DNA of 24,831 bases, from NCBI GenBank assembly GCA_046861385.1, contig JBHHTW010000030.1, positions 1 to 24,831 on the forward strand, written 5' to 3'. Source of the DNA: Fidelibacterota bacterium (lineage in GTDB: Bacteria > Fidelibacterota > Marinisomatia > Marinisomatales > TCS55). Of the stretch, positions 1 through 24,707 are shown one piece after another. Made by a program: the position numbers and the translations under genes. Position 1 is the stretch's first letter; each line of letters opens with the position of its first letter. The notes below the pieces were generated by a model. It searched no databases. It had not been told where the DNA came from and saw only the letters and a program-made list of their open reading frames with translations.

Positions 1-2282
1 TCCCAATCATCACCCGGGGGATTATCGCGGTAATGCTCGCACCGGGGAATATAAACACGACTGGGGTTTGTTTTCCGCCCCGGGAACATATCTTCTAATT
101 CATCTGATGCCTTAAATGATTCAATGGCTTTTTCCCAATTCTGGTTGCGATATAATTCCAGAGCATTGTGATATGCAGGGAGTAGTTTATCATACCCGGG
201 AGGCATATTCCCTGCTTCCGCTATGAGTTCGAAAACTTGGGCTGGTTCTGTTTTCCCCATGACGATTACATAATCCAAGTCCCGCCAGATGAATTGATCT
301 TTGCAAGCTTTATAAGTTTCCTCAGCCACCTGAATATAAATACCGTACTGTTTAGCAGACGCTTCAAGGCGGGCTGCTAAGTTTACAGTATCTCCCATCA
401 TGGTATAATTCATTCGAGTGGAAGAGCCGACATTTCCAATTACAACTGGTCCAGTATTAATCCCAATCCTGTTTTGCATATTGTGGACAATTTCCGGCCA
501 TCTGTCTCCTTCGCTCAGCCACTTCTTTCGAAGTTCACCTAATCTCTCTTGCATTTTAACCGCTGTTAAACATGCCCAGTACTCATGATCTTCTACCGGG
601 GCCGGAGCACCGTAAAATGCAACAATAGCATCACCAATATATTTATCCAGCGTCCCTTTATTCTCCAAAAGTCTGTCTGTCATTTCGGTTAAATATTCAT
701 TTAATAACTCTACCAAGTCGGACGCAGACAGCTTTTCGGAAAAGCTGGAAAAACTTTGAATATCAGTAAAAAATGCTGTGTGGTGTCCTTCTTCACCTCC
801 CAGTTTTGGTTCTTCTTTATTTTCATACATTTGATCAATCAATTCAGGAGAAATATATGTGCTGAAGGAGTTTTTTAAAAAGCGTTTATCTTTTTCAACC
901 ACCAGAAAATTATAGAGAAAAACTCCCAGGTAAGTTGCGCCAATCGATATAGCTGGGCGGACAATTTCCCACATCTTTAGTCCTGTAAGAAATTCATTGT
1001 AAGTAAAAAGCATCCAGATTACAACTACGACGATGGGGATAGGCAGCGAATATAATGTCTTTTTTGGAACGCTCACAAAAATCCCCAGTAGAGTACATAA
1101 AGCAAGGATTACTGCAAAATTGGTTTGTGTATCGGTGATGGATACAAATTCATTTTGCAAAATACTATGAATCACATTGGCATGGATTTCCACTCCGGAA
1201 AATGTTTCCTGGACGGGTGTATTACGCAAATCCATAAGCCCCGGGAGAGATGCTCCCACAATCGCAACTTTCCCTTTCCAATAGGATGGATCCAATAATT
1301 CGGGATCCATGCAGTACATGAATGGTAAATAATAGAATGTTTTGAAATAGCCAAAATAATTGACGTACATACGGCCTTTTTCATCAATGGGGATTTCCCT
1401 AACAATCGATCCTGTTGTATCCCGCATCGTCAATATCAAATTTTCGAAGTCGTAGTTTAGACCGTCTTTCGGAACACCTAGAATATCCATCGCTGCTGCC
1501 ATGGTCAATGATGGATACACATGATTGGGTCCTTCGAACCAAATAGCTGTCGGTGAACGTCGAATGATACCATCGTCATCCTGTGGGAAGTTTGCGCTGC
1601 CTGCTCCAACGGAAGCTTGAAAAAGATCTGGAAACGTGTTCCCCAGACGATCAGCTTTCGGTAACCGCCTTGCTTGATCTTCCGGAATGATAATTAAATG
1701 ATCAGGACGGTCATAACCCTCCGGTTCTGCGTCCATCTTATAAAGAAAATTGAGCGTGTCCTCTTCTTCAAATACCATTGCATGGTAGGTCTTTTGGCTT
1801 TCGTATGTAGAATTCACCAACCGCGTCGGATCATTACTCAACAAAAACTGATTTGTAACATCAGCCAAATATTCATCGTGAGGAGCGCTGTCATTATTCA
1901 ATGCATTCACCAAGTCAAAATTGAATGTGTTTTCAGGATCGAAAATTATATCAAAAAGAAGGGCTAATGGCTCACCGGAGGTGACGACATCGATGAGTTG
2001 GCCATGATAAGCCTGTGGCCAATTGTAAAAGCGTCCAAGTCCTCCTTCCTCTGCGGGAGCTACGGATTGCTGTTCAATATCAATAATGACTACTGTATCA
2101 ATAGATGCTTCTTCCACGCCGGCAACGCTTGCCCGCATTCGGGCGTCATAAGACTGGTATTCATAACCATCTAATAGATCCGTGAGGAAAAAGCCTTCTG
2201 CGTTGGTACCAAAAGCAACGATAAAGCCTATAGTCAAACCAATAACAGCACCTATGCCTAGGCGTTTTAAGAATTCATTCAT
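1..2282 (-). CDS. CHASE2-domain membrane adenylate cyclase, class III (3' end truncated by window edge, >760 aa)
   Basis: Not in ORF track; translated by hand from ATG at 2282: MNEFLKRLGIGAVIGLTIGFIVAFG (TM), CHASE2 motifs VVIIDIE..LGRFYNWP..LLFDIIF and SGVEIHANVIHSIL, hydrophobic TM block ~900-1130, cyclase motifs TAFFTDIQSFSSFSE, DKYIGDAIVAFYGAP, RIGINTG, NYTMMGDTVNLAARLE, then YHNALELYRNQNWEKA and PPGDDW(D) at the edge. Frame spot-checked as consistent at 2282, 1191, 630 and 3. Confidence 0.95.
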   Translation of the reverse strand, partial: MNEFLKRLGIGAVIGLTIGFIVAFGTNAEGFFLTDLLDGYEYQSYDARMRASVAGVEEASIDTVVIIDIEQQSVAPAEEGGLGRFYNWPQAYHGQLIDVVTSGEPLALLFDIIFDPENTFNFDLVNALNNDSAPHDEYLADVTNQFLLSNDPTRLVNSTYESQKTYHAMVFEEEDTLNFLYKMDAEPEGYDRPDHLIIIPEDQARRLPKADRLGNTFPDLFQASVGAGSANFPQDDDGIIRRSPTAIWFEGPNHVYPSLTMAAAMDILGVPKDGLNYDFENLILTMRDTTGSIVREIPIDEKGRMYVNYFGYFKTFYYLPFMYCMDPELLDPSYWKGKVAIVGASLPGLMDLRNTPVQETFSGVEIHANVIHSILQNEFVSITDTQTNFAVILALCTLLGIFVSVPKKTLYSLPIPIVVVVIWMLFTYNEFLTGLKMWEIVRPAISIGATYLGVFLYNFLVVEKDKRFLKNSFSTYISPELIDQMYENKEEPKLGGEEGHHTAFFTDIQSFSSFSEKLSASDLVELLNEYLTEMTDRLLENKGTLDKYIGDAIVAFYGAPAPVEDHEYWACLTAVKMQERLGELRKKWLSEGDRWPEIVHNMQNRIGINTGPVVIGNVGSSTRMNYTMMGDTVNLAARLEASAKQYGIYIQVAEETYKACKDQFIWRDLDYVIVMGKTEPAQVFELIAEAGNMPPGYDKLLPAYHNALELYRNQNWEKAIESFKASDELEDMFPGRKTNPSRVYIPRCEHYRDNPPGDDW

Positions 2283-2371
2283 TATTTGTTATTTTATGCT
2301 AATACTACCCATTTAATTTCCCTTAATACAGAGGGATTTTAGGGAATAATAGTAAATTTGTTTTTTCATCA

Positions 2372-2421
2372 TAGTACAGACATTCTTGTCTGTACTACTG
2401 CAGACAAGAATGTCTGCAGTA
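2372..2421. repeat. REP-like inverted pair of 11-bp hairpins
   Basis: TAGTACAGACA-ttct-TGTCTGTACTA (2372-2397) and TACTGCAGACA-agaa-TGTCTGCAGTA (2396-2421); cores 2377-2392 and 2401-2416 are exact reverse complements; intergenic. Confidence 0.8.
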
Positions 2422-2586
2422 CATTTGTATATATACCGTAATTCAAAGCTTTTGAAACAGCCTCAATGAAAGGTTTTTTGAACACCCGCCCCCCAAGCTC
2501 TTCTCCTTCGTATAATTACTAACTCAAGTCCTTTTATAGTTTTAATTATTTTCATACGATTCACTATTGCTGGATTTATAATAAAC

Positions 2587-3363
2587 TTATTCTTCAGCTG
2601 CGTCCAGTTCTTTATTCCATTTCACAAAGTCTAGATCTCCGTCTTTTGTTTGATCGAATTCAAACATATGGTATTTGCCATCTTTGCGGATATTGATCTG
2701 CATTCCTTCTGCCAGTGTCACCCACTCTTCCAAGGTTACTTCATAGGGACCGGAGACTTGAGTCGGCGCCTTTATTTCTGTTAAGGGCCCAAGTGTGAAT
2801 TTCGGTTTTCCAGGAGTACCGCCGGGAGCGCCAGATTTTCTTTTGTCCTGGCGTTCTTCAATCACATTTTTAGCTGCATTTACATCCACTTTCCCGTTAT
2901 ACACCAAGACCTCACTTTCATCTTCTCCTGCTTTTGCTCTGTACTTGGTTCCCCGAATGGCCGCCACAGCTGTAGGAGTTCTTAACTGTACATTTTTCTT
3001 CTCTCCAAATGCAGCCTTGGCAGACACAAATACATTTCCTCTCTTTAAGTTGGCTTTGAAATTCTTCACCATGGGTTTTACACTGGCTTCGTTCAATTCT
3101 AACTCAGAATTTTCACCCAAGCGAACTTTACCGCCGCCTTTCAGGGTGATTTCAGCTCGGGATTTTGCAGCCGTTTTGATAATATCCCCCTCAAAAACCG
3201 GACGATTTGGTTTTGCTTTTTCCCACGATTCATTGCCGGAGGATTGAACTTCAACTTTTCCTAAAGGTAGTGAGATTTTACCAAACTGCTTTCCGGCTGA
3301 ATATCCATTACTGACAAACACAACCATCAATAAGATTGTAATAGTTGAAAATAATTTTTTCAT
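2587..3363 (-). CDS. Exported FecR-domain protein (258 aa) without cytoplasmic anti-sigma domain
   Basis: Sec-type signal peptide; FecR-like motifs GKVEV, VFEGDIIKTAAKSRAEITL..G..VRLGENSEL, LRTPTAVAAIRGT, VLVYNGKVDV; RBS AGGTG 5 nt upstream. Confidence 0.88.
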   Translation of the reverse strand: MKKLFSTITILLMVVFVSNGYSAGKQFGKISLPLGKVEVQSSGNESWEKAKPNRPVFEGDIIKTAAKSRAEITLKGGGKVRLGENSELELNEASVKPMVKNFKANLKRGNVFVSAKAAFGEKKNVQLRTPTAVAAIRGTKYRAKAGEDESEVLVYNGKVDVNAAKNVIEERQDKRKSGAPGGTPGKPKFTLGPLTEIKAPTQVSGPYEVTLEEWVTLAEGMQINIRKDGKYHMFEFDQTKDGDLDFVKWNKELDAAEE

Positions 3364-3415
3364 TATTTCACCTATTTAGTATAATTGTTATTTTTGTTTT
3401 CATTTCGTTACCATC

Positions 3416-3445: not shown

Positions 3446-3459
3446 CATATGTTGTAAAT

Positions 3460-3490: not shown

Positions 3491-3516
3491 AGAAGGCGCT
3501 GATCTTTAATGAGTTA

Positions 3517-6500
3517 TTATTTTACCATAATCATTTTATTGGTTTTATTCAGGATCATTTTTCCGGAAACATCTTTGATTCTTGTTGTGTAAAAATAGAC
3601 TCCACTGGCAACTCGTTTCCCATCACGATTCAATCCTTTCCAAATCATATTATGGTATCCCGCCGGGCGCAATTCATTATCTATTATGCGGGTGACTTCT
3701 TCACCCAATATGTTGTAGACAATCAGATCAACTGTGGCTATATCCTCCAATGTAATCAGAATCGATGTTTGTGGATTGAATGGATTCGGATAATTTTGGC
3801 TGATGCTGTATCGATCAGGATAAAGGTCAATGCCGGCATTATTATCGCTTAAAAATTCCTTCGTTCCAGCAATAAAACGAATATTATGAATGGATTTAGC
3901 ATTGCTAACAGCGTACCTATAAACAGGATTCCATCGTAAATCCTGGGCGACGCCCAATGTTACGTCAATGAGAAACACATCAAAATCAGACGGAATATCG
4001 TTTTGTCCTTCAAAATATAGATACACATTATATTTGTCATCTTCCGCCGCGACATTCATATCCCAGAATTCACCGTCTTTTTTAATTGACCGGATGTCTT
4101 TCGTATATGTATCTCCATTTTTAGCCCAATTGCTATGGTCCATCATGAGAGAGATACCCCCTGGCAGCATGGGCGGTTCAAAAGCATCCATTTCATCATA
4201 GTCATCCTTCGCAGTTGCCAACACTCCGATTGTATTTAGTTCGTCAACCCCTAATCCATTTCTGGCTTTAATATCGACCAGCCACTCATTTTCCATCAAA
4301 ACAATCTCTTGATCTAATTGTTTCGCCATACCGCCATTGCTTTTTCTCGGCTTGATATAAATGTTATTTGCTGAGGCGGCCGATTTATAAATATAGCCCT
4401 TCCAGGGTTCAATTTCGGTGGGGTTCAACCAGTTGCTGTCATACGTGTAGAGATTGTCATCACCAGCTAAGTTTGTGGAATCATTGATGTATACATTCGT
4501 TAGAGGTATACTAAAATCATACGGGTTCCCAAACATAATCCAATCACCGGATACGAGCGTAATCGGGAAGTCAACATCTGAGGTGACTGTTCTGGTTTGC
4601 CCAGTATTAATATTCAATGCAGGGTCTTTCACAATAAGGAAATAGCCTGCGCCGGGTTGGAGGGTTGAAATATTCGCAAATTCAGACCATGCACCGCTTC
4701 CACTATATTCAAATAACCGCCATTTGGTATCGTCATACTCGCCCAGATCATCCACCAGAATATTAGTGGGTGTACTATTGGCAGCTTGTCCTGGGAAGGA
4801 CAAGAGTTGATAACTGGTAACAGCAGAACCATTTGGAATTCCAGTCGGCCAACGATCTGCGCTAGAAAGACCTGGCTCGGTGATAGTTATGGAAGTGGAA
4901 TAATACCCTTGAGAGGGTTTATAAATCTCATTCCCTGCAGCATCTCTGGAATAGAGATAGTACTCCATACCGGAAGAGGTAACAAAACTACTGGCGATCT
5001 GATAGGTATTTAGAGTTGACATATCCACCGGGCCCTGCCACTGAACTTCACCGCCTTTTCGGTAATACAGTTCGGCTATATCAATTCCGGATGTATTATC
5101 GCTAAATGCGGCTGTTATGGTTACGGTTGTATTTTCCGTTCCTTCCAATACGGGGTTGTGTGAAATAGTAGGACTGGTGAAATCCACATTAAACGTCTGT
5201 GGATTACTGGAGGTCGTTTCGTTCCCGGCGCTATCAAAGGCCACGACGCTCCAACTATAAGTACCCTCAGAAAATTCACCGGGAACCTGATGGGCTGTGG
5301 AATCTGGATCAATAGAATATATATCGGATGTATTGATAACCAGATCATAGTGTTCTAAACCGGCTGTAGCATCTGAGGACGCATTCCACTGAAATCGAAA
5401 TTTGGATTGACTATACCAGTCATTCATAGGATACATAAGGGTAAAATCATTCGGGGCTGTATTATCCCATTTCGCTTCAATTGACTGTGCATTAATGCTA
5501 TTTTCATTCCCGAGATTATCCTCCAGCCATACATCAATTAATGAAACAGCATTGTTCGGTAATGCTATATTTTCCAAACTTTGTATTCCAGGTACAGCCA
5601 CATAGGTTTCGCTGCCTCCATCAATCGTGTAATGAGCGCCTGCAATTCCAGAGTTCTCGGATGGGTTTGTCCAAGATATTGTGAAATCATTTACACTCGT
5701 CCACCCATTCGGATTAATTGCGATATCCAGGACAGCCTCGGGTGCGGTCACTTCAAAGAAATGATATTGGTTAGATTGGGTTGAAATACCATTAGAAGTA
5801 AGCTGTACTACAAAATCAAAACTCCATGTGATATCAGATTTTACTTGCAATGTTATGGAAGCAGCTCCGTCTTGGGTAACATTGTCAGAACGAATAATAT
5901 TAACCCAATCAACAACGTTCGATGGTATTAATTCCCATGTGATCGGTGTACCATTTGCAACATCATTTCCAAATTGGTCAATAACGTTACCGCTAATTTC
6001 TCGTTCTTCTGTCTGATTAACGGTTGTATCGGATTGTTCAATAATCCAAACTGAATCCGGAGCACCCGCCACCACTTTAAAATAGCCGCTTTGGGCAATC
6101 GTTCCATTGTCTTCAACCGTAACAGAATTCAAATCATTCAACGTGGTGGTAGTATAAAATGTATTGCTTATCCGTCCCCATAGGTCAGAATCGTATGTAA
6201 AATTATTATCTAACGTTCCAGCAGCAGCAGCCCAGCTAATGGTAGGATTTGTCTGATAATGACCTATAATGTTATATACTTGAGCCCTAACAGTTACACC
6301 GCCACCCATTATCGAACTGGTGTCTGGGCTGACTGGAATTATATCATCAGCTAAGGGATACAATACAACTATATTACCCGTAGTATACCCACTTTGATCA
6401 TGAAAATAACTTCCTGCGTCGGCAAAAGTATTATCGGGGTCAAGCCAGTTTTCAGTTGTATCCATATCAATGGCTGGTGCAGAACTTAATAATGTAAAAT

Positions 6501-18500: not shown

Positions 18501-19989
18501 TACGATAGTAATAAGTAGTCCCACTGGTTAAACCAGTCATTGTTTTTGTTGTATCACTAATGTTTGTTGTGGAGTCCACCTTCGCAGTCGGGTTGGTGGA
18601 AGTGCCGCCATAAATGATATACTTGGCAAAGTCGGTTTCCGTGTTCTTATTCCACTTCAGGGTAATCAGGGAATCCCCGGGAGAAGCGGTGAGACCCGTG
18701 GGAATAGCCGGGGGAACATTATCAAAGGGAACTGCATTTACTTCACTTGAATAATCACTCAAATTCCCGGATGTATCTACCGCTTTAATACGATAGTAAT
18801 ATGTAGTACCATTGGTTAGACCGGTAATTGTTTTTGTTGTATCGCTGATGCTCAACGTTGAATCCACTTTTTCCCAGGGATAAGACCATATGCCGCCGTA
18901 TATATAATATTTTGATACAATACTCTCTGTATTTTTATCCCACCTTAGCGTCACTTGAGTGTTCCCGGGAGTGGCAGTGAGGCCCGTAGGAGCGGCAATC
19001 AGTGAGCTTCCGGTCGCCTGGCTGGAATATCCGCTTTCATGTCCGGCGCCGTCAATAGCTGAAATTTTGTAATAGTACGTTGTTCCAAAAGTAACATTTG
19101 TGTCAGTATAAGAACTGCTGGTTGATGAAGAGTCAATTTTATTACTGGCTGATGGTGTAAAACCGCTGGTGGTACTACGGAAAATATAGTATTTAACTAC
19201 ATCATAATCAGTGCTTGCAGTCCAATATAGGTAAATCTGTCCTGATTGACCGGTTGCTGTTAGATTTGTAGGCGATGATGGTACGGTAACATCAAGTGAA
19301 TTATAGTAACTTGAAATTTCGGATGCTGATAAAGCTCTATTGTAGATTTTAAGTTCATCAATATCAGTATCGATTGCTGTGTCACAAATAATGATATCAT
19401 TTGAATTTGTTTTCGCCGGATCTGTCGTACTTGAAGAACTAATCAGTTTACTGTCAAGATAGTAAGCATGCCCGGTTGACGTTTTTGTATAAGCAACATG
19501 GTGCCAAGCATTGTGTGTTAATTGATTGGAATTGCTGACTTGTTTCCAATAACCGGTAACATTGCTTCGGTAACCGGCAATAACCGGTCCAAAATTATAT
19601 TGATTCCACAATTGCCGAAATACATAAAAATTATACGTTGTACTGGAACCCTTTTTAACCAGAGTTTGCGCAGCACTTTGATTACTTCGCTGGCGAAACC
19701 AAAAATGAACTGTAAATGAATCCGGCATATTAAAACTGCTATTATGCGGGATGGAAATTTTATCAGAAGTACCTGCTATATTGGCGTATCCACCCGATAT
19801 TCCCCCAGTGGCAGGAAAAGTAACACTTCCTGTCGTTATTCCATTATACCCACTTCCGCTGGCATCATTTGCATTACCATTAAAAGGGAAATATACAAGT
19901 TGACCAACAGCGCTTGTTGAGGTTTCTGTTGCAAGTAATAAGGTCGGTAATATTATTATAGATAAATAAGTTGTTAACCTTTTAGTCAT
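3517..19989 (-). CDS. Giant secreted multi-domain surface protein (5490 aa): LamG x3, FN3 x~12, ASH/choice-of-anchor-D-like Ig, right-handed beta-helix modules x6-7, Ig-like domains, C-terminal FlgD-Ig/T9SS-type sorting domain
   Basis: Signal peptide; LamG motifs (LVYFPFNGNANDASG..WHHVAYT..IDELKIYNRAL); FN3 motifs (PTGLTATP..LxW..GLTNGTTYYYRIxAVD); YVxxxGxD..GS..P..TIQxAI..GD.I...PGxY caps with DxxGNxRP..PDxGAxE ends; C-terminal QNYPNPFNP..VYNILG..W.G....G..VASGVYFY..KM..K; RBS AGGA upstream. Confidence 0.95.
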   Translation of the reverse strand: MTKRLTTYLSIIILPTLLLATETSTSAVGQLVYFPFNGNANDASGSGYNGITTGSVTFPATGGISGGYANIAGTSDKISIPHNSSFNMPDSFTVHFWFRQRSNQSAAQTLVKKGSSTTYNFYVFRQLWNQYNFGPVIAGYRSNVTGYWKQVSNSNQLTHNAWHHVAYTKTSTGHAYYLDSKLISSSSTTDPAKTNSNDIIICDTAIDTDIDELKIYNRALSASEISSYYNSLDVTVPSSPTNLTATGQSGQIYLYWTASTDYDVVKYYIFRSTTSGFTPSASNKIDSSSTSSSYTDTNVTFGTTYYYKISAIDGAGHESGYSSQATGSSLIAAPTGLTATPGNTQVTLRWDKNTESIVSKYYIYGGIWSYPWEKVDSTLSISDTTKTITGLTNGTTYYYRIKAVDTSGNLSDYSSEVNAVPFDNVPPAIPTGLTASPGDSLITLKWNKNTETDFAKYIIYGGTSTNPTAKVDSTTNISDTTKTMTGLTSGTTYYYRITGVDTLGNESGFSSDVSEMPLSKEIFLTSSFHNFGNVQINTTSNWTYYVKNIGNDTLTVSNITKGLSTYSVNPTSGNINPGDSLSVTVSFTPIAITSYPDTLRVFSNDSEFGDTLKLVTLSGTGMDTLPPAAPQNLVLSAGDQQIAMTWNKNTETDFDKYIVYGGTSTNPTAKVDSTTSIGDTTKTITGLTNGTTYYYRITAVDTNRNESGYSSEVSASPSATNPTPSTPTNFTLTPKDDQLTLNWTPVGDSDLSKYRVYRGNSQWNINILDSVLVSSSPNTAYTDNAVDNDTLYYYYITAVDSAGQESSNSDTVHVMPTIVPDGLVALYNFSGNMIDGSGEENDGTNYGANQTYNRFNNWGKAYNFDGVSDYLLFNSFNNGLITNSLTIDLWINLDVVGGTIIEKRSGNNIDFDIEISSQNQLLYTHFGNLGNFYGTTVLSANTWYHITATYNNQSISLYVNGILDGQYQTSGNISTNSSSIFVGSYAGGSNYFDGVIDDIRIYDRALTTSEIQTLFEVGGWDPAPTTPQNFYATPGNDQLTLGWDPVRDNNLAKYRIYRGKTQWNLNLLDSVVAASSPDTFYVDNVVDNDTLYYYYVTAVDSAGQVSDQSDTVHVMPTIVPDGLVALYNFYGNVLDGSGEGNDGTKYGATQTYDRFGDWGKAYYFDGNTDYVTIPNSMNNLSDLTVETWFKYTNTNTWRWVFGTITGFVQVGASVAAGDDILRYHFSTSNGSFSDGDGSHHVNPNEWYQLSLTYDGTTVKGYIDGELDFERAWTGQVSITDQPAIGAGFNSEWFYGSIDEFRIYDRAITSTEIQTLYDAGGWDPSPGTPTNLTAAGSNESVTLSWNKIPDSDLAKYRIYRRWGSTSLILLDSVMAASPPDTFYTDHSVINDTTYYYQVTAVDSAGQGSGYSNEVSVTPTAKVTVELLVGATTTSTGSQDQGYALNTYYHDVKHQSLYHAADLDNAGLSPGATITAIDIYPAQTPGMDLSSFRIATAWTNEAALSDSFLTTSVVYGPTYHYTADFPTGAWVRFPITPILWNGLDNLVVEFSHDNTNYASGGGVYLRHTGSNSDRGRRGWSDSNAGNYPFTTNMGSAPDDKVAYLQLTYTVPKVLSPSNITAIPSYQQVDLSWTASISDSIANYKIYRGTTSINLTAIGTAASTASNYSDTGLVNGTTYYYGIRSIQIDGDSSAMTTPVSAVPSVETPSNLSIAAAPQQVTLSWDAPSGSGVAKTYIYQRDASTATFLADSTSDGTTVTKTITGLTNGTMYYFAIKYKGQDGTTSAYSDTVNATPDYTGPTFWVAENGSNTTGDGRLTSPFLTIQQAIDKAVSGDTIKIKPGSYSGVGNYDLNPQKDLFIMGVGGADSVTIDVGASADNRHSAFDLDLFPYSAMTIKGLKIVNALSQNGYGGAMILFNAGSVNIIDCVIGPGNKAAVGAGIFIENTSATIDGTVIKGNSAPMTSGNFSGDVNGVGVYISNGSTESVTIKNSVIRGNVGTANGPQNDMFGGGFYITGQNTNVYFINTIIFNNELTRTGVSNYWSRGGGGAIDNGANVYFVHSDLLKNNAENTDFPDESRGGALWINDNASAIYFLNSIIWGNTASSTINSGDQMFAGDNFFNITMHYSDAQEAFSGESNLSEDPHFTDDLNNIFSLDVRSGLLGAGASGSQSTYPGYNHILSTDFLGNVRPNPSGSNPDIGAIENSLGESPVPDAPTDLAATPGDGQVILTWTAHSETDVEKYGIYYGTTSGPTVKQKDVTGRTTVTDTITGLSNSQIYYFRMTAIDSSGYESAFSSEISVTPQFLGTTIYVDVDSAGAGYTPDGSDTKPYGSIQEAINASNVIDGVRVLVNPGTYTGLNNEPVVDLIGKQLILESVDGPATTIIDAGGASGNRSALRLDKEFGGSYNGYTNSTKFIGFTFQNGDNSKPLIVINGPDKSIDEWAPSFENCKFIDSRASSQDLLSVIWIFQAEPVFDGCEFRNLTVAPASADDMNIYAPIRIGGADNFNFGADTTIYRSQFLNCIIAENSSTITNSSNNNGKNFFGGALFIGYGAVPYFENTRIDSNSIDSNPYQSSSWANGGGVYIDSWFAQGPPIKFINCSISDNTVEGSYVYGGGIYSRYPRVDLINCLVTGNNAQSNFSDSRTYGGAIYFSSDLYQYGSGPAQYNGVDQGLRLINSTIADNEISPNTIYGDWGGAGICRDNPSDNPVIIFNSIITDNATGTYVDDARVNLSNNAGPFGSTNALIDYSIIEFFSETGLNETYLMDADPGFIGNGDYTLSTASLAIGAGIDQYEGVTAPAFDYNNDSRPKPSGSNPDLGAFENSLSTTPYPSKPQNLVMEAVGDSSVTLSWTANTEDDISQYMIYYGTATATTLLDSISGTPSYTATGLDNGITYYFAVAAKDLDGYESSKSNEVSGVPKWVGPLWYVDETQTSGSGKDGSPSLPFREIQDAIDAVDPLSRTDGLKDTVIVLPGTYDRSDDQNLVFVYNNGDSNDGQPKNIVLKSRDGAATTILDGEGSKRLFEIVDKTDTTLHIIGFTITGGGESDGWGNAVRVEGQSYWDYSLNQQITTTSGVIFKNCIIKENGTETNPEEAPVIRVSAGDVRFVDCVIENNHVSISSGSGEGGTIQGKDDSRITVIRTKILDNSLTAISADAYGAGIYIGWNDNNKLTAINSVIARNTATAGSSSPSRGAGITVRGGKATIINSTIVDNNNIDQYQFENGAGIYVTYGSGDSGTKFNLFNSIVSGNTPLQKQLQIDDWLDVNHFVSYSIIQGGDVDNYEDGVFEANPEFVDLTYVLSDRSPAIGAGETESENTNGDPIFAPTVDLAGNTRPVPSGSNPDMGAYEHNLAITPFPAPVQNLVATPLHQAVLLDWDFSPDQNVDRYVAYVSDDSITFTVDDTVSGRFTTRTTIGSLTNGENYWFYVTALDTGGFESSPSLQVKATPFFQGPVWVVDTDNGSVSGEGSLNDPLRYIRDAIETAVDGDTIMLMPGTYTGSKNRDLDFQYNNDIVQNGVKNLVLMSMYGPDTTVVELDGNSFLEVISGETFKSKLIGITIQNSESGAVNINNNSELKIKDCIFYNNSTDFRGGAVFVSGASSVKIRRTLFQENSSNNFSQGGALSIDNANCNVSNCIFYQNTAQAQGGAIYVDLSESKLQVIHSLFLENESGNGPAAIGNGSNPDIGIVNTIFWDNMENGSNSRDIDYASSVENCILQEGSPVMNLGDNYSFDPEIIGSDTGNFSLSEYSGAIGLGLESYYDYFSDEDRDVPTTDFLGNARPQPDSTLPDIGPIEHRNAEPRRSVYYVDNSGNDNNDGSSPANALRTIKESLNQSSFKDTIELAPGIYSGLGNRELSMNGVARIIRSAVGSASTIIDCENQGRAFVFDSSESDSVLIKGITIMNGSTPENGGGVFILNADPVFENVIFENNSAPNGSGGAVYASNSHTRFINCVFTANRAAESGAIAASGGDVTIDFTTAVGNRGNDLISFSGELNISNSIIWYNSPLDNSVSVAFSDVMGGNAGIGNYNGRPGFVDGLNGDFHLKDWSPVIGKANGSAGVLYDIEGFARSDSIPDMGAYENTLDSSGTYTKHYWYVSTTGSDSVTANMGTDIQPHKTIQYALNRAIFNDEIRILPGNYHELLNNWGKDITIVGHSGIPDDVTIDGYYKITGGSPGLYDLHLTNGIGNNDILQINNNATATLYNLLITHSNSSGISVNNTAAAALYNMTIYGNFIGIEDNSSGNVSVTNSIIWNNGSSILGSPTITYSAIQGSYTGSGNISDNPLFIDAALGNYRIGIQSPCIDAGNPESIYDSDSTVVDMGAFPRLRDFYSGTTSGNVEITSEESAVLTGDLIVTSSDTMNIDAGGTVYFEPGATLTVEGVLGISGTSMNPISFKSTDPDSSYGGVIINILSAGRAVNDVYSYMVIEGVGSDFIPLTINGNATIEHITIAGNENSTSLIVNDGTVALNYSILEGSASGTGTIINTGSFVNSTDQFANYNTGDFTLLSSAPAIDMDTTENWLDPDNTFADAGSYFHDQSGYTTGNIVVLYPLADDIIPVSPDTSSIMGGGVTVRAQVYNIIGHYQTNPTISWAAAAGTLDNNFTYDSDLWGRISNTFYTTTTLNDLNSVTVEDNGTIAQSGYFKVVAGAPDSVWIIEQSDTTVNQTEEREISGNVIDQFGNDVANGTPITWELIPSNVVDWVNIIRSDNVTQDGAASITLQVKSDITWSFDFVVQLTSNGISTQSNQYHFFEVTAPEAVLDIAINPNGWTSVNDFTISWTNPSENSGIAGAHYTIDGGSETYVAVPGIQSLENIALPNNAVSLIDVWLEDNLGNENSINAQSIEAKWDNTAPNDFTLMYPMNDWYSQSKFRFQWNASSDATAGLEHYDLVINTSDIYSIDPDSTAHQVPGEFSEGTYSWSVVAFDSAGNETTSSNPQTFNVDFTSPTISHNPVLEGTENTTVTITAAFSDNTSGIDIAELYYRKGGEVQWQGPVDMSTLNTYQIASSFVTSSGMEYYLYSRDAAGNEIYKPSQGYYSTSITITEPGLSSADRWPTGIPNGSAVTSYQLLSFPGQAANSTPTNILVDDLGEYDDTKWRLFEYSGSGAWSEFANISTLQPGAGYFLIVKDPALNINTGQTRTVTSDVDFPITLVSGDWIMFGNPYDFSIPLTNVYINDSTNLAGDDNLYTYDSNWLNPTEIEPWKGYIYKSAASANNIYIKPRKSNGGMAKQLDQEIVLMENEWLVDIKARNGLGVDELNTIGVLATAKDDYDEMDAFEPPMLPGGISLMMDHSNWAKNGDTYTKDIRSIKKDGEFWDMNVAAEDDKYNVYLYFEGQNDIPSDFDVFLIDVTLGVAQDLRWNPVYRYAVSNAKSIHNIRFIAGTKEFLSDNNAGIDLYPDRYSISQNYPNPFNPQTSILITLEDIATVDLIVYNILGEEVTRIIDNELRPAGYHNMIWKGLNRDGKRVASGVYFYTTRIKDVSGKMILNKTNKMIMVK
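3520..3810 (-). other. C-terminal secretion/sorting domain (T9SS type A-like / FlgD-Ig) of the giant protein
   Basis: YSISQNYPNPFNPQTSI...IVYNILGEEV...AGYHNMIWKGLNRDGKRVASGVYFY...KMIMVK. Confidence 0.85.
16021..17820 (-). repeat. Tandem ~900-bp FN3+LamG duplication inside the giant gene
   Basis: 16621-16660 vs 17521-17560 are 37/40 identical at 900-bp offset; both units read SDTVHVMPTIVPDGLVALYNF and end RIYDRAxTxxEIQTLxxxGGWDP. Confidence 0.9.
17941..18654 (-). repeat. Near-identical FN3 coding repeat, two copies 600 bp apart (17941-18054 and 18541-18654)
   Basis: 104/114 nt identical by manual count, with a 32-nt perfect run (17975-18006 = 18575-18606). Confidence 0.92.
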
Positions 19990-20015: not shown

Positions 20016-20726
20016 TTAAGGCAGTGCCGGCGGTTCAGGCAACACAGCCGGAGCCTGTTCTAAATTCAAATAATAGTAAGCACCGCCCCCGGCTGCTGCA
20101 AGACCCAGTGTGGTCCAAAGCAGCCAACTGCTTCCACCTTTTTTGGCAGGTTGAACCGCCGCGGCCACTACTTCCGGTTGCTTCTTTTTTGCTAATATGT
20201 GTTCGGGGGGTGTCAGTCCCAAAATTTCCCACGCAAGGATTTCAATTTCGGTGATCAGTCCGTCAATTTCTCCTTTATAGGATTTGCTGACCGTTTTAAT
20301 GGTCGCACCCGATTCCACTGAAAACATTTTGGCATCAATAGTATATGTGTTCCCAAGCTTGCCAAAAGCTCCGGAAATCATGTTTTGCACACCAAGCATG
20401 GCTCCCACTTCTGCGGCACATTCATCTGATGTACATCCTGATTGCTGAAATCCCTGTTCTTCTAGAATTTCAGACATCTGGCCTCGTTCTACCAAAATTA
20501 CTGCATTGGTATTGGCCAACTCAGAGGAAAGCCTGTCCGTTAGTGTCGCTGATTCTAATTGGGAAATACCCCTGCCTTCAAAATCCAAAACAGCCACTGT
20601 GTATTTGCCGGAAGCAAGTTCTGCTGAGGTTTCTTCATTGATTGTCGGGTTCCCCTGTGCCAGTAACCATACCGGTAAGAGTACTCCCAAAAGAACAATG
20701 ATTGTTTTTAGTTTGGTTAGCATCAT
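20016..20726 (-). CDS. CsgG/HfaB-like (FlgO/TolB-N fold) exported protein with C-terminal Gly/Ala-rich hydrophobic helix and Pro-rich tail
   Basis: TVAVLDFEGRG..LTDRLSSEL....ILVERGQMSEILEEQGFQQSGC....CAAEVGAMLGV..MISG..GKLG..Y.I..KMFSVESG. Start moved from TTG 20738 to ATG 20726 because GGAG lies 6 nt upstream of it. Confidence 0.8.
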   Translation of the reverse strand: MMLTKLKTIIVLLGVLLPVWLLAQGNPTINEETSAELASGKYTVAVLDFEGRGISQLESATLTDRLSSELANTNAVILVERGQMSEILEEQGFQQSGCTSDECAAEVGAMLGVQNMISGAFGKLGNTYTIDAKMFSVESGATIKTVSKSYKGEIDGLITEIEILAWEILGLTPPEHILAKKKQPEVVAAAVQPAKKGGSSWLLWTTLGLAAAGGGAYYYLNLEQAPAVLPEPPALP

Positions 20727-20784
20727 AGTGCGCTCCAATTTATCAAATGATTATTAAATGTTTCCGTGCTCTGGAACACATGTA

Positions 20785-21432
20785 TTACTCCTGCTCTGCC
20801 AGTAATTCATCGATTAGCGCAGACAATTCGCCTTCTAAATCCTCATCCTCATGAAATCCCTGCCTTGCTGAGCGAATGATTTGAAATTTATCAATGACAA
20901 ATAATCTGGGCAATGTTTTTGCTCCGTACCTTTCTTTTGCTACCCCCCGTGTATCATATAAAATAGGAATGGTGATTCCTTTTTCACCTAGAAAAGGACC
21001 TGCTTTGGGAGAATCCTCAAAACCGTTATTATTCCGAGTCGCTTCTGTAATATCCACCAGGAAAAATTTGATAGGTTTATCTTTATACTTCTGATATACG
21101 TTTTCCAAATGAGGTAATTCTTTCATGCATGGTTTGCACCAGGTGGCAAAGAAACTTAATACTACAGGATACCGGTTCGGTTGGGACATGAATTTGCGTA
21201 ATTTCTTATCGCGTTCTACCGTCCAGTTTTTTAGAAACTCGAATTTCCCCGGCGCATACATCAACGCCCACGACGGCGCTAAATCACCCGGTTTTAACCC
21301 GGGGTCCGTAGTGGTATCATGAGGAACAACGGCGACTTCACCTGTATCCTGCGCAAGACCCATACTACCTGTCATAATTATTATTGTAATCAATTTAACG
21401 AAAATGTTCACAGTTATCCTTTCTCTAATCAT
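20785..21432 (-). CDS. TlpA/ResA-like thiol-disulfide oxidoreductase, exported or membrane-anchored
   Basis: PGDLAP, VVLSFFATWCKPCMKELPHL, PILYD, YG..TLPRLFVIDK. True start may be GTG at 21411 (AAGGA 5 nt upstream). Confidence 0.9.
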   Translation of the reverse strand: MIRERITVNIFVKLITIIIMTGSMGLAQDTGEVAVVPHDTTTDPGLKPGDLAPSWALMYAPGKFEFLKNWTVERDKKLRKFMSQPNRYPVVLSFFATWCKPCMKELPHLENVYQKYKDKPIKFFLVDITEATRNNNGFEDSPKAGPFLGEKGITIPILYDTRGVAKERYGAKTLPRLFVIDKFQIIRSARQGFHEDEDLEGELSALIDELLAEQE

Positions 21433-21455
21433 ATTTTTTTATTCCGTAGAAATTA

Positions 21456-22280
21456 TCAGTCCAAAACAAACAGAACCCTGCAATCCTTAAGAATTCCATT
21501 GGAGCTGTTGGCAGATTGAATTTTCATTACATCTGCATTTGCAACTATTACATCTGCTCCGTTTGTACCGCTGGCAGAAACACCTTTAATGACCAGGGGA
21601 TTGCCCTTGATTCGGTCATCTGCCTGTGCCCTGTCTAATCCTTTGGCATAACCGACCACACCGTTTTGAATAGCATATTCCCTTGTATAATTCCCTGGAC
21701 CGTAAACGACTCCGCCATTCTGATCCAGAATTCTCGGAGACATCGCCGGACGGATACCAAGACCCCGGGTATCAATAATTAATCCGGTAATGGCTGATGT
21801 GGTGGGAGCAGTTAATTCCCCAGTTGGCGGAACCGCTCCGGGGATAGATGGAGGTAAAAATCCTGTTGGCGGTGTGATGACATCCGATATCCCGCTCATG
21901 GGGACTTCATACGTCACCTCAATAGAAGTATCGCTTAAATATTTGGGCTCCCCCACTTGTACGGCGCCACGAATTGCTCCTTGCACTCGCGATTTGATTA
22001 CATCATCAAACATGGCATTGCTCATGGTTGTTTCACTGGTCACAACCACACCGTTTACAATTTCAATAAGTTGACGCAACGCATCCTGTTTTGCGATTCT
22101 CAAAGCAGCTCGACGGGCCTGTCCCGCATTAATTACATTTTCAGGAATAAATCCAATACCAGTCGCCTGGATCGTTCTATTAGAATAGTTAATAGAACCC
22201 CTCTCGAACTGTTCACCCACAAACGATGTTTGTCCTGCAACAATACTTAAAATGAATATGATTGATAATACCTGTTTCAT
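21456..22280 (-). CDS. LPP20-like exported protein with additional C-terminal domain (274 aa)
   Basis: Signal peptide; IQATGIG...ARRAALRIAKQDALRQLIEIVNGVVVTSETT...IKSRVQGAIRGA resembles LPP20/FlgP-type domains; Pro-rich linker; then TGLIIDTRGL..PAMSPRILD domain; RBS AGAGG. Confidence 0.65.
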   Translation of the reverse strand: MKQVLSIIFILSIVAGQTSFVGEQFERGSINYSNRTIQATGIGFIPENVINAGQARRAALRIAKQDALRQLIEIVNGVVVTSETTMSNAMFDDVIKSRVQGAIRGAVQVGEPKYLSDTSIEVTYEVPMSGISDVITPPTGFLPPSIPGAVPPTGELTAPTTSAITGLIIDTRGLGIRPAMSPRILDQNGGVVYGPGNYTREYAIQNGVVGYAKGLDRAQADDRIKGNPLVIKGVSASGTNGADVIVANADVMKIQSANSSNGILKDCRVLFVLD

Positions 22281-22294
22281 AGCGAACCTCTTAG

Positions 22295-23413
22295 TTATTG
22301 CACAATTTCTGCTGTAATACGATTTCCGGATAATCCTGTCACCTTAAAATCTAATCCATCCGGAGATGTTCTGCTTAATCCCATAGCTAAGGCTTGTGCT
22401 TTTCCTTCAAATTCAACCTCAAATTCAGCCACGCCATCATTTAAACTTTTTGCGTAGGCATTCCTAACTCCGGATACGGTTTGGGCTTTTAAAAAGGATT
22501 CAAATGTCATATAAGACATGAAATCAGCATTTTTTAAGACGATATATACTTTGATAAAATTCGATTGTTGAGTACTCCATTTTAAGATTAGCTGCCGGAT
22601 AATATCATTCCCCAATTTACCCACTGCTTCCTGGGTGGCATTTACTCCGGCTGTGGAGGCTGATATATGAGGTTTTTTACCGTGAGCATTGGGTACAACT
22701 GCTAAAATCTCTCCTGTATCAGCGCGTACAATTTTACCACTGATATCTGCTTGTCCGGAAACCATATTATATATTTTACCTCCGGATGAAATTTTCGCAG
22801 AACCAATAACGATTACTTCTGCTCCGAGCATACTTGCTATTTTTGCTGCAGCTGATACATCCCCGGCTAATGCCTGATTATAATCTGCTTGTCCTTTTAG
22901 AGCAGATACAAGTTGACGATCCACCACATCAAACCCTTTATCGTAAAACATACTCAATAATTTTGTTTCAGCAAAATCTGTGGGGATGTCGTCAATTAGA
23001 TTGTCTTCCCGAATCATAAAAATAATCCTCGGACGGTTCATAGAATTCAGAAGAGTTTGAAGAGCGGCCTCATCCTGCATAACCTGATCGAGCATTTGGG
23101 TAACTTCTGCATTCAGAGTTACCTCCCAAAGACCATCGGGTCCTTGTTTTTCAGATACAATTTCGAATGTTTTAACAAACCCCTGAGCTTTGGAGTAAAT
23201 ATTATCACTCAATGATGTTGCAGTCACAACGGTTTCTGACGAAATAAATGCCCCAAGCCCTACTTCAACTGCGTCCCGTTTTGCCTGTTCTATAGCTGCG
23301 TCTTTCGTTTGTCCGTACCCCGTTCCTTGAGCTGTTTGACTTTGCGGCCAAAGGATAGAAATAGAAACCAAAAAAACAAGACCTATTGCCTTTATGCGTA
23401 GATTAGACTTCAT
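22295..23413 (-). CDS. FlgT-like exported protein (FlgT-N-like plus CsgG/TolB-N-like middle domain, 372 aa)
   Basis: AQGTGYG.TKDAAIEQAKRDAVE...G.FISSET..GFVKTFEIVSE..EVTLNAEV (FlgT-N-like); RPRIIFMI..AET.L...F..KGFDVVD..AEVIVIGSA..KIVRADTGEILA (CsgG-like fold); small C-terminal alpha/beta domain. Confidence 0.65.
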   Translation of the reverse strand: MKSNLRIKAIGLVFLVSISILWPQSQTAQGTGYGQTKDAAIEQAKRDAVEVGLGAFISSETVVTATSLSDNIYSKAQGFVKTFEIVSEKQGPDGLWEVTLNAEVTQMLDQVMQDEAALQTLLNSMNRPRIIFMIREDNLIDDIPTDFAETKLLSMFYDKGFDVVDRQLVSALKGQADYNQALAGDVSAAAKIASMLGAEVIVIGSAKISSGGKIYNMVSGQADISGKIVRADTGEILAVVPNAHGKKPHISASTAGVNATQEAVGKLGNDIIRQLILKWSTQQSNFIKVYIVLKNADFMSYMTFESFLKAQTVSGVRNAYAKSLNDGVAEFEVEFEGKAQALAMGLSRTSPDGLDFKVTGLSGNRITAEIVQ

Positions 23414-23489
23414 CCTCTAATTATCCCCTATGTTGAATGTTCAGTGAAATTATCTAAACATACTATCTATATGCAAATTAAACATCAAT

Positions 23490-23511
23490 AAATGTGATTT
23501 AAATCAATCTT
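23490..23511. promoter_or_regulatory. CRP/FNR-family-like binding site in the divergent promoter region
   Basis: AAATGTGATTTAAATCAATCTT, 17/22 match to CRP consensus AAATGTGATCTAGATCACATTT; perfect 12-bp palindromic core TGATTTAAATCA (23495-23506). Confidence 0.5.
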
Positions 23512-23588
23512 TGTTAATCACTATCTTTTTTTTTAAATAAATTTCTTCATATATTCCACCAAGTTGTACGAACGATAAGGGTAAAACC

Positions 23589-24707
23589 ATGAAAAATATA
23601 CTATATTTTGCATTGGCACTAATCATTTTTGCCGGATGCAGTCAAAAACCGCAAAGTGACGTTGATACGCCTGAATACCATTTCAAGGCGGGGATGCGGG
23701 CAGTTGAATCCGGTAATTATACTGCCGCCATAACCTCATTCCAACGATCTGTTGATCTTGATAAAAAATTTGCAATTGGTTATTGCGGGCTGGGATTAGC
23801 CCATGCCTATCTGGGACATATCAACGAGGCAAAAAGCAATGTGAATAAAGGTGTTGGTAAGGGCGGTAAGGATCCTGATGTTTTGGCTTTGGGCGCCAGG
23901 GTGTGGATTACACTTCGGGGACATGAAAAATATTGGTTTAAGCGGTCTACCAAAATATTGGATAAAGCGCTGAAAAAGAAGAAAAACCACGAGGCGTCCT
24001 TATATTATTACGGTGTTGCCCATTTATATAATTATGAATTTGATAGCGCCGGATCCTATTTCCAAAAAGTTGTGTCCAGAAAAGGGGAGTACGCAGGAAA
24101 GGCGGATGACAAATGGACATTGGCGCAAAAAATTGTTCGGGCAATGCCGGGAACATCTGTTGGGAAAAAAGTAGCACTGCATGAAAAAATTACTCGAGCT
24201 GATCTTGCTGTGTTATTTGCAGAAGAATTAAAAATCAGTGAATTATTTGCCAGAATGCCTCAGCAAAATGCGGGATTTCAGACCCCGGGACAATATAACG
24301 CTGCCGGTAGTTCAGCAGGCAATCCAATGGACAGCAAGGGACATTGGGCAGAAACATGGATTAATGAAATGACCAAATACAGTGTATTGGAAGTCAGCCC
24401 TGATAGAAAATTTCACCCCGATGATGTGATTACTCGAGCTGAATATGCCATGGCCGTCCAGCGGTTGCTGGTGGTTGCCACTCGAGACGCCGGATTAGAA
24501 ACTCGCTATTTCGGAGAAAATCCGTCCCGGTTTAGCGATGTGCCCAGCAGCCATTACGCCTATAATGCAATGGCTCTTTGTTCCGAAAGAGGAATCATGC
24601 AAACGGATTTGCTTACAGGAAACTTCAACCCATCCGGAACAGTCACCGGAGCAGATGCTCTGCTGATAATACGGGCGATACAAAATTCTTTGCGAATGAC
24701 ATTTTAA
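23589..24707 (+). CDS. Lipoprotein with N-terminal TPR repeats and C-terminal S-layer homology (SLH) domains
   Basis: Lipobox IFAG|C17; TPR-like HFKAGMRAVESGNYTAAITSFQRSVDLDKKFAIGYCGLGLAH and LYYYGVAHLYNYEFDSAGSYFQKVV; SLH motifs D.KGHWAE.WI....F.PDD.ITRAEYA and FSDVPSSHYAYNA......GIM; RBS AAGGG 7 nt upstream. Confidence 0.88.
   Translation: MKNILYFALALIIFAGCSQKPQSDVDTPEYHFKAGMRAVESGNYTAAITSFQRSVDLDKKFAIGYCGLGLAHAYLGHINEAKSNVNKGVGKGGKDPDVLALGARVWITLRGHEKYWFKRSTKILDKALKKKKNHEASLYYYGVAHLYNYEFDSAGSYFQKVVSRKGEYAGKADDKWTLAQKIVRAMPGTSVGKKVALHEKITRADLAVLFAEELKISELFARMPQQNAGFQTPGQYNAAGSSAGNPMDSKGHWAETWINEMTKYSVLEVSPDRKFHPDDVITRAEYAMAVQRLLVVATRDAGLETRYFGENPSRFSDVPSSHYAYNAMALCSERGIMQTDLLTGNFNPSGTVTGADALLIIRAIQNSLRMTF

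Follow-up and report, generated by a model that had tools for sequence, protein, structure and literature searches.

To our knowledge, no ligand has been identified for CHASE2, a sensor domain that is extracytoplasmic and very widespread; its only studied case, that of Sinorhizobium meliloti, points to envelope proteins as partners, and the signal is known for none of the systems that pair FecR with CHASE2. According to the available portions of two reports, the CHASE2 cyclases of S. meliloti need an outer-membrane protein in order to perceive a protein signal (PMC7529298, PMC13001267). An earlier note on the locus described here had attributed FecR-like and TPR domains to NsrA of this species; this disagrees with the accessible part of a third report, in which the FecR domain belongs to SMc02177 and the TPR repeats to SMb20495, both targets of Clr and dispensable for signal perception (PMC5498481). 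As far as the available sections of the respective papers go, genes for FecR and TPR proteins are found in clusters with those for CHASE2 cyclases and a phosphodiesterase in Campylobacterota (PMC9239204), and LysM-FecR genes cluster with CHASE2 kinases in an operon in Burkholderiales/Burkholderia (PMC5192318). In magnetotactic bacteria, mtxA is located beside a CHASE2 cyclase (PMC4439547).

The window, i.e., the whole stretch of DNA analyzed, is one whole contig (24,831 nt) of an uncultured marine bacterium of the Fidelibacterota, and its new feature is the linkage of a non-flagellar FlgT/FlgP module with a FecR-CHASE2 pair. No description of this gene composition was found in the literature, consistent with the earlier statement that no characterized system is composed in this way, and no paper was found that names CHASE2 together with FlgT, FlgP or LPP20. 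ORF listing combined with domain and fold checks showed that all eight ORFs are real, with g8 on the plus strand and g1 to g7 on the minus strand, the latter separated in row order by 14, 23, 46, 26, 153 and 304 bp. Every protein begins with basic and then hydrophobic residues, as expected for export signals. The earlier picture of eight exported or membrane proteins, seven co-directional and g8 divergent, was thereby borne out, and the names given to the genes also held by fold and profile, for g4 in its N-terminal CsgG half only. The 175-bp divergent spacer between g8 and g1 (positions 23414–23588) probably carries a shared promoter; a sigma-70 promoter scan of the locus is uninformative for this phylum. 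The locus comprises three modules rather than one eight-part machine: M1 (g8-g1-g2, plus g3), M2 (g6-g7) and M3 (g4 and the giant gene g5).

A FlgT- and FlgP-like envelope module

Neither g1 nor g2 had a Pfam match at E≤0.01, and their labels hold because structure and profile support them. The g1 product (22295–23413) is a secreted FlgT-like protein with LPP20-like N-terminal, TolB_N/CsgG-N-like middle and alpha/beta C-terminal domains. Its AF2 model (pLDDT 75) matched FlgT (3w1e; Foldseek E 1e-8; VIA Z 11.3 over 209 residues, model 26–282 to chain 1–267), 8z5n_0 (Foldseek E 7.6e-9) and TolB_N (VIA Z 11.5), and the FlgT fold, that is, FlgT_N plus a TolB_N-like middle domain, was found in it. 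The Pfam FlgT_N profile gave 15.3 bits, below the cut-off of 28.8 (E 0.03), and the NCBIfam LipL46-like profile gave E 1.6e-11 with a score far under its cut-off. Across the order, g1 proteins are 60–93% identical. The secreted g2 product (21456–22280) combines a FlgP/LPP20-like N-terminal domain (profile E 2e-9 to 2e-6 against FlgP chains; Z 7.4 against Lpp20, 5ok8) with a C-terminal domain that resembles domain 2 of Tp0624 (5jir; Z 15.3, rmsd 2.4 Å over 112 residues, 28% identity; profile E 3.6e-7). Pfam LPP20 matched 9 of 9 g2 orthologues (best E 5.2e-6), and the window's own g2 scored 14 bits versus a cut-off of 25.9.

The divergent gene g8 (23589–24707) codes for a lipoprotein (FAGC lipobox) whose N-terminal part carries TPR repeats and whose C-terminal part carries two SLH domains (61.9 bits in Pfam). 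Of the 74 Marinimicrobia loci with 1.4 kb or more of upstream sequence, 73 have g8 next to g1. The domains of the wall-anchored TPR scaffold proposed earlier are present, but its anchoring is uncertain: g8 contains the only SLH matches in the whole genome (97.85% complete), and a CsaB-type pyruvyl transferase (PF04230) was not found there. An exported TlpA/ResA-type thioredoxin (Redoxin 57.1 bits, WCKPC motif) is encoded by g3 (20785–21432). Where the downstream sequence of a Marinimicrobia locus is long enough, g3 comes after g2 (61 of 62 loci); it is missing from a compact form of the locus (family f21). No flagellar genes were detected among the genes of the window, and FHIPEP/FlhA was not found in the same 97.85% complete genome. 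The locus shows relatives of flagellar outer-ring proteins employed outside any flagellum in Marinimicrobia, a phylum abundant in the ocean, which bears on the evolution of these rings. A separate FliF-FliG-MotAB row is located on another contig of this genome.

The FecR protein and the CHASE2 cyclase

The first gene of M2, g6 (2587–3363), encodes a secreted FecR-domain protein (62.2 bits versus a cut-off of 24) with a conserved C-terminal domain of about 60 aa. It lacks the cytoplasmic anti-sigma part of FecI-FecR-FecA regulators and their adjacent ECF sigma and TonB-dependent receptor genes: g6 starts with a signal peptide, and no sigma factor or receptor family was found among the eight genes. 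Its neighbor g7 (3–2282) encodes a CHASE2 sensor (145.4 bits in Pfam), with one helix ahead of it and a hydrophobic membrane block behind, followed by a class IIIb adenylate cyclase domain (Guanylate_cyc, 89.2 bits); since the ORF runs off the contig end, the protein is some 10 residues short (orthologues have 762–790 aa). The cyclase domain aligned best to CyaB of P. aeruginosa (3r5g, E 7.5e-36) and also to CyaC (1wc0). Both alignments showed that the FTD, KYIGD, T and N..R positions are kept, which we take to be the metal, substrate and transition-state residues of class III cyclases. This CyaB-like alignment, together with the set of catalytic motifs, makes the previously predicted cAMP output plausible, and outside this locus the genome codes for six cNMP-binding proteins. 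The 304-bp spacer between g6 and g7 contains a REP-like double hairpin (2374–2421; 11-bp stem), copies of which occur on six other contigs with a variant on a seventh; in orthologous loci this spacer has only a few to about 110 bp.

Gene arrangements in related genomes

The linkage of the envelope genes with the FecR-CHASE2 pair, suggested by a single contig in the earlier note, was found in Marinimicrobia in three gene orders with differing flanks. Arrangement A has g8 divergent and then g1-g2-g3-g4-giant-g6-g7, flanked by PAP2 and carA/carB; of 21 mapped loci, 10 have it in full, and six more break off at a contig end, either within the giant gene or shortly ahead of it. Arrangement B (g1-g8-g2-g6-g7, co-directional, without g3, g4 and giant) was found in all three genomes mapped from a family whose relationship is no closer than the class, next to genes for ribonucleotide reductase, a PorU-like peptidase and maf. 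Arrangement C (g6-g7-g8-g1-g2-g3, with neither g4 nor giant) occurs in three loci flanked by gyrB-gyrA-yggS. Arrangement A alone proves little because nearby housekeeping genes are equally syntenic within the order. Among the matches listed, 28 genomes carry g1 and the best g7 match on one contig and strand, 1.5–25 kb apart. Neither g1 nor g7 is present in one complete genome of the same family that consists of a single contig, and in a family of approximately 1-Mb genomes g1 was found in 0 of 30 and g7 in 1 of 30. Gene content, folds, an intact set of catalytic motifs and conserved linkage are shown.

It could be argued that the modules are merely independent neighbors, with M1 serving generally in the envelope or in wall tethering, M2 acting as a FecR-CHASE2 sensor of the usual kind that has a ligand of its own, and M3 being an adhesin cassette, kept together by shared ancestry and envelope co-expression with no signal passing between them. 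Consistent with this possibility, distant relatives carry M1 alone: 8 of 80 metagenome loci have g2-g8-g1 and five shorter ones g8-g1, no FecR or CHASE2 match was found in these loci within the sequence covered, and their neighbors, where tested, were PriA, NlpC/P60, glycosyltransferases and DsbD. Further, 41 of the 80 loci contain a g1 relative without any other gene of the locus (16 of them with at least 3 kb on both sides). One Marinimicrobia genus has M2 with g4 and a giant gene on one contig and M1 after another giant gene on a different contig, and in a third genome of this genus the cyclase is present, of FecR only the C-terminal 92 aa remain, and g1 was not found. CHASE2 cyclases were detected in 239 of 301 genomes of the phylum and g1 in 93 of 301, which means that the majority of these cyclases function without M1. 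The genome studied here itself has a second CHASE2 cyclase, with a FecR gene one gene away and no M1 genes at that locus. On the other hand, M1 and M2 remain adjacent in three orders with three sets of flanks, and an unrelated metagenome lineage has a direct coupling: in three of its loci, and partly in a fourth, the gene for a full-length g2 homologue and the beginning of a CHASE2 cyclase gene overlap. Genes of the TPR-CsgG, CsgG-like and g1-family types lie divergently to this g2 homologue, and FecR is absent. We therefore regard mere neighborhood as rather unlikely, although it deserves some weight. The co-occurrence of the small genes, raised in the earlier note, stands for the three orders in which M1 and M2 adjoin and does not extend to distant relatives with M1 alone.

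In module M3, the g4 product (20016–20738) has an LpoB/CsgG-N-like periplasmic domain (CsgG 28.9 bits, LpoB 27.7 bits in Pfam) as well as a CX4C pair, with a hydrophobic helix at the C-terminus. A CsgG channel was considered and rejected: the match covers profile positions 3–97 of 210, i.e., the N-terminal LpoB/TolB_N-like part, and the channel-forming half is missing, so that the former CsgG-like label applies to the N-terminal half only. Paralogues of g4 are present on two other contigs. The 5490-aa surface protein g5 (3517–19989) contains a signal peptide, three LamG_3 domains, fn3 and Ig repeats, five beta-helix modules, a FlgD_ig tail (27.1 bits versus a cut-off of 27) and a putative T9SS-type tail (TIGR04183, type A, 22.3 bits versus a cut-off of 23); in relatives the fast-evolving giant ranges from 1877 to 5591 aa. 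The giant, cast as a surface antenna in the earlier note, is not a required one: we consider it and g4 accessory, because both are absent from two of the three linked orders.

The opposite view would place the adhesin at the center, with g1–g4 and g8 assembling, anchoring or quality-controlling the giant, the thioredoxin handling its cysteines, and FecR-CHASE2 only regulating or reporting adhesin production. Giant genes do lie beside M1, beside M2 or beside the two together, as seen in arrangements A and D and also in a g4-giant-g6-g7 form; each is preceded by a g4-like gene, the 17 cysteines of the giant and the CX4C pair of g4 are encoded alongside a thioredoxin gene, and the genome has the SprA translocon (588.6 bits). 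However, a giant gene is missing from arrangements B and C as well as from the stand-alone triads, g3 is kept with M1 in arrangement C in which g4 and the giant are missing, and in related loci the small genes are 62–86% identical versus 30–54% for the giants, a contrast that would not be expected of a closely matched assembly apparatus. An adhesin-centered machine thus appears improbable.

Proposed signaling and relation to known systems

The presence of flagellar-ring-like proteins beside a cAMP sensor suggests that envelope proteins feed a CHASE2-type sensor. Our preferred reading, whose chances we consider about even, is that the core of the locus is a five-gene envelope-to-cAMP unit (g1, g2, g8, g6 and g7), usually with g3, and that M3 is a lineage-specific insert; every protein contact in such a unit, and the nature of its signal, we infer. 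M1 would assemble beneath the outer membrane like its flagellar relatives, with g8 linking this scaffold to the wall or some other partner. Through the FecR protein g6, the scaffold's state may then be relayed to the periplasmic CHASE2 domain, which would set cAMP synthesis by g7, and the cNMP-binding proteins encoded elsewhere would read the cAMP. M3 may contribute an input, for example the load borne by a surface adhesin, and would not be required. A bolder version, which we view as quite unlikely, is a non-flagellar ring or cage of the FlgP/FlgT type under the outer membrane, held by the TPR-SLH lipoprotein, that mechanically couples surface structures (here the giant T9SS adhesin) to the FecR relay and CHASE2. 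If true, CHASE2 receptors would respond to how an envelope scaffold is assembled or to its mechanical state, instead of to a small ligand, and particle-attached ocean bacteria would have a touch-to-cAMP pathway. For the five-gene core, the locus provides defined and strongly conserved candidate partners of CHASE2 (the FecR protein, the FlgP-like and FlgT-like proteins and the TPR-SLH lipoprotein), and the compact five-gene form could be rebuilt in E. coli.

Compared with the S. meliloti pathway (NsrA, CyaK/CyaD1/CyaD2 and Clr), the locus is similar in its CHASE2 cyclase, in its proposed input via an outer envelope protein and in CRP-type readers, and differs in that NsrA is described, in the available portions of the reports, as a beta-barrel outer-membrane protein (PMC7529298, PMC13001267), whereas no match to a beta-barrel family and no Clr-like gene were found in the window. 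With the described FecR and CHASE2 pairs, the locus shares a secreted FecR protein encoded immediately ahead of a CHASE2 cyclase, and a TPR protein belongs to the cluster. Of the Campylobacterota cluster set (cyclase, FecR, TPR and phosphodiesterase), FecR and TPR are present, but no phosphodiesterase family was found among the window's genes, and LysM is also absent; similarity to MtxA was insignificant (E 0.12). Here, the TPR protein bears SLH domains and FlgT- and FlgP-like genes are added. Tp0624 of Treponema pallidum (5jir) resembles g2 in that an LPP20-like domain precedes domain 2, but the OmpA-like third domain is missing from g2, and the putatively wall-binding (SLH) part resides on a separate protein, g8. 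With regard to the Vibrio H-ring (FlgT, FlgP and FlgO) and the Campylobacter FlgP basal disk (3w1e, 8z5n, 9hmf), g1 has the N-terminal and middle domains of FlgT, the N-terminal domain of g2 matches FlgP chains by profile, and the TolB_N/FlgO/CsgG-N fold is found in g4 and in the middle domain of g1. Different from those structures, the putative ring described here has no flagellar context, and g2 differs from FlgP in having no lipobox (its sole cysteine is residue 267) and an extra Tp0624-D2 domain. Unlike H-ring genes, those of this locus are accompanied by genes for a TPR-SLH lipoprotein and a cyclase.

Gene products of the window and their likely roles

The window makes up the whole of contig C54 of the source genome (2.43 Mb in 104 contigs, 97.85% complete). 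Eight long ORFs were found, each of which could be assigned to a family or fold, confirming the eight genes observed in the earlier note. Only g8 lies on the plus strand, 175 bp from the divergent g1; the minus-strand row reads g1, g2, g3, g4, g5, g6 and g7 in order of transcription, with spacers of 14-46 bp as far as the giant gene g5, and afterwards of 153 and 304 bp. The unusual length of the 304-bp gap between g6 and g7 is explained by a REP-like double hairpin (window 2374-2421), copies of which occur on contigs C5, C22, C33, C56, C72 and C80; contig C89 has a variant form. The contig end cuts g7 about 10 residues short of its orthologues (762-790 aa).

Five genes (g3, g4, g6, g7 and g8) were named via Pfam and NCBIfam. 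g1 and g2 had no Pfam match at E<=0.01; their orthologues were aligned and both proteins were modelled (pLDDT 75 and 65, respectively). The top structural matches of g1 were FlgT as a chain in the Vibrio LPHT ring structure (E 7.6e-9) and FlgT on its own (E 1e-8), and FlgT was the sole entry that aligned over two g1 domains (209 residues at Z 11.3). Taken by itself, the middle domain of g1 matched TolB_N, PelC and CsgG, each at Z ~11. By profile, the N domain of g2 resembled FlgP chains (E 2e-9 to 2e-6), and by fold it matched Lpp20 (Z 7.4). The g2 C domain superposed at 28% identity on Treponema Tp0624 domain 2 (Z 15.3, rmsd 2.4 A; profile E 3.6e-7), to which it is clearly homologous; the Tp0624 paper describes its domain 2 as previously uncharacterised (PMC5104382). 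Atlas clusters nearest to g1 and g2 came from Thermodesulfobacteriota and Fibrobacterota and serve as leads only.

FlhA was not found in the 97.85%-complete source genome, and therefore g1 and g2 are not components of a conventional flagellum. The same genome has, at C83:33919-41477 (locus L201:920-8478), a co-directional row of CarboxypepD_reg, two TPR, MotA, MotB, FliF-like and FliG genes. The MotB is of the OmpA type, the FliF-like protein of the YscJ_FliF_C type, and FliG has all of its domains (N, M and C); the row may encode a rotor and stator that lack a flagellar export apparatus. A specific tie between this row and the g1-g2 genes was rejected: a FliG-like gene occurs in 221 of 301 phylum genomes vs 93 for g1, and families without any g1 still carry one.

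The remaining labels of the earlier note also stand by profile and fold, except that g4 is no CsgG channel. This protein has an LpoB/CsgG-N-like domain, a CX4C pair and a C-terminal hydrophobic helix (by Pfam and sequence) and covers positions 3-97 alone of the 210-position CsgG profile, which rules the channel out. Two larger paralogues occur in the genome (C22:462-1982 and C68:446-1897); one, 64% identical to g4, has two LpoB/CsgG-N repeats and DUF5683, and the other combines PEGA with a tail resembling an outer-membrane barrel. A TlpA/ResA-type thioredoxin (WCKPC) is encoded by g3. The giant g5 (5490 aa) contains LamG, fn3 and Ig-like repeats as well as five beta-helix modules that all close with the motif PD-G-E; its FlgD_ig/T9SS-type tail scores slightly below the TIGR04183 cut-off, and the SprA translocon is encoded in the genome. 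The lipoprotein g8 combines TPR repeats with two SLH domains (window 24330-24659), and no other SLH match occurs in the genome. A search of the 97.85%-complete genome for a CsaB-type pyruvyl transferase (PF04230) found none; the usual ligand of SLH domains may be absent.

The FecR protein g6 carries a signal peptide. Its nearest NCBIfam entries were Leptospira Lsa33 and LipL45, with scores far under their cut-offs, and MtxA was dropped as a relative (E 0.12, insignificant). g7 combines CHASE2 with a class III cyclase, whose catalytic domain is closest to Pseudomonas aeruginosa CyaB (E 7.5e-36) and Spirulina CyaC. In alignments with these two, g7 retains the FTD and GD aspartates, the KYIGD lysine and the N..R pair and has threonine at the second specificity position, a residue set that we read as typical of class IIIb adenylate cyclases. 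The window encodes no cNMP-binding protein and the rest of the genome six. Complex prediction with CHASE2 residues 28-395 and FecR residues 24-258, each supplied as an alignment, gave a score of 0.07 (mark 0.32) and weighs neither way. A second CHASE2 cyclase locus, on contig C79 (L003:7960-16172), has the order 396-aa protein, FecR, 903-aa protein, CHASE2 cyclase and 311-aa protein, so that FecR is one gene off; no Pfam family was found for the 396-, 903- and 311-aa proteins.

Gene orders across Marinimicrobia

The 301 phylum genomes were searched with g1 and with g7, and long flanks were taken for 20 places. g1 was matched in 93 genomes and g7 in 239, with several paralogues per genome. In at least 28 genomes, among the matches listed, g1 and the best g7 match lay on the same contig and strand, 1.5-25 kb apart. 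A second set comprised 80 Marinimicrobia loci from a public genome collection, a search of which returned Marinimicrobia-type contigs only. Three of these bear record titles of other taxa (Thaumarchaeota, Flavobacteriaceae and Legionellales for L087, L098 and L102); they have a Marinimicrobia-type cluster with 73-82% g1 identity, and the titles are probably binning errors.

Four gene orders were seen. Arrangement A, the order of the window, was seen in full in 10 of the 21 mapped loci, and in six more the contig ends inside the giant gene or ahead of it; this arrangement is flanked by PAP2 and carA/carB. Arrangement B (g1-g8-g2-g6-g7 on a single strand, without thioredoxin, g4 or giant) was shared by all three genomes mapped from a family that is related at class level only, and its flanks hold ribonucleotide reductase, maf and a PorU-like peptidase. 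In one of these genomes, G131, the compact row is directly followed by a C25 peptidase of 1285 aa (L033:11935-15792), which has a FlgD_ig tail and is PorU-like, of the T9SS sortase type. Arrangements C (g6-g7-g8-g1-g2-g3, flanked by gyrB-gyrA-yggS) and D (giant-g8-g1-g2-g3) were each found in three of the 80 Marinimicrobia loci. Counting only those of the 80 with sufficient sequence on the relevant side, g8 adjoins g1 in 73/74 and g2 comes next after g1 in 69/69; the next places in the row are taken by g3 (61/62) and g4 (52/56).

The g8-g1-g2 group thus stays beside the g6-g7 pair through three rearrangements, and this conserved adjacency is our main evidence for a functional tie. The likeliest reading, to which we give about even confidence, is a five-gene envelope-to-cAMP unit. 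Input would come from the FlgT/FlgP-like scaffold together with the TPR-SLH lipoprotein and would be relayed by FecR to the CHASE2 adenylate cyclase, with the giant adhesin cassette as an optional addition.

Separability of the modules

The earlier note had proposed one sensing system with cAMP output. Its core gains from the adjacency in three orders, but the giant and g4 are accessory and the g8-g1-g2 module also occurs alone. The g4-giant pair is a fast-evolving accessory cassette, because it is absent from arrangements B and C and the giants are variable and divergent: they range from 1877 to 5591 aa, two g4-giant pairs now and then share a locus, and identity in related loci is 30-54% for giants and 62-86% for the small proteins. 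In two genomes of one genus, g4-giant-g6-g7-g4' is on one contig and giant-g8-g1-g2-g3 on another. An apparatus centred on the adhesin, with which giants beside either group might agree, seems improbable given the orders that do without one.

A third genome of that genus (G240, L203:9557-12147) has gyrB-gyrA-yggS, a FecR cut to its conserved C-terminal 92 aa and an intact CHASE2 cyclase; g1 was not found in this genome, and FecR and the g1 module may have decayed together. Four genomes with a g7 orthologue and no g1 (G107, G225, G251 and G216) were uninformative, their contigs ending in or beside a giant or FecR gene.

Distant g1 relatives were collected by profile search (889 clusters at E<=1e-30), and 80 metagenome loci were scanned. 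The g2-g8-g1 triad was present in eight and g8-g1 in five shorter loci, with no FecR or CHASE2 match within the sequence covered in any of these 13. Among the others, nine had g1 with a downstream CsgG-like gene, 12 had CsgG-like genes upstream, three had g4-g2-g1-g2, two had g2-g1, and 41 had g1 alone. Since it occurs there without FecR or CHASE2, the g8-g1-g2 module is an independent, widespread envelope module. That the three groups are merely independent neighbours is accordingly a possibility we take seriously, although conserved adjacency within Marinimicrobia makes it the less likely account. In three of the 12 loci with upstream CsgG-like genes (L177, L187 and L189; L175, of the same type, is cut), a gene that overlaps the start of a CHASE2 cyclase gene encodes a protein matching the g2 profile across both domains. 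Two TPR-CsgG fusions, a CsgG-like gene and a g1 relative lie divergent to this pair, and FecR is absent. By gene content, such loci are a second, independent CHASE2 link, unlike the window in composition and sharing its theme.

Comparison with known systems

FecR and CHASE2 gene pairs have been noted in print and, in the parts of the papers available, left unexplained (PMC9239204, PMC5192318, PMC4439547). These parts describe cyclase, phosphodiesterase, FecR and TPR genes together in Campylobacterota (PMC9239204), LysM-FecR together with a CHASE2 kinase in Burkholderiales (PMC5192318), and mtxA followed by a CHASE2 cyclase in magnetotactic bacteria (PMC4439547). The earlier note had likened the window to Sinorhizobium meliloti, with NsrA carrying FecR-like and TPR domains. 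As far as the accessible text of the sources goes, the CHASE2 cyclases of S. meliloti sense a protein signal via NsrA, a beta-barrel outer-membrane protein (PMC7529298, PMC13001267), and the FecR and TPR proteins are separate Clr targets, dispensable for perception (PMC5498481); that account of NsrA was therefore not borne out. In the literature outside subscription-only journals, we found no paper joining CHASE2 with LPP20, FlgT or FlgP. What is new here is the link of a module of the g8-g1-g2 type to a FecR-CHASE2 pair, and the existence of a compact five-gene form.
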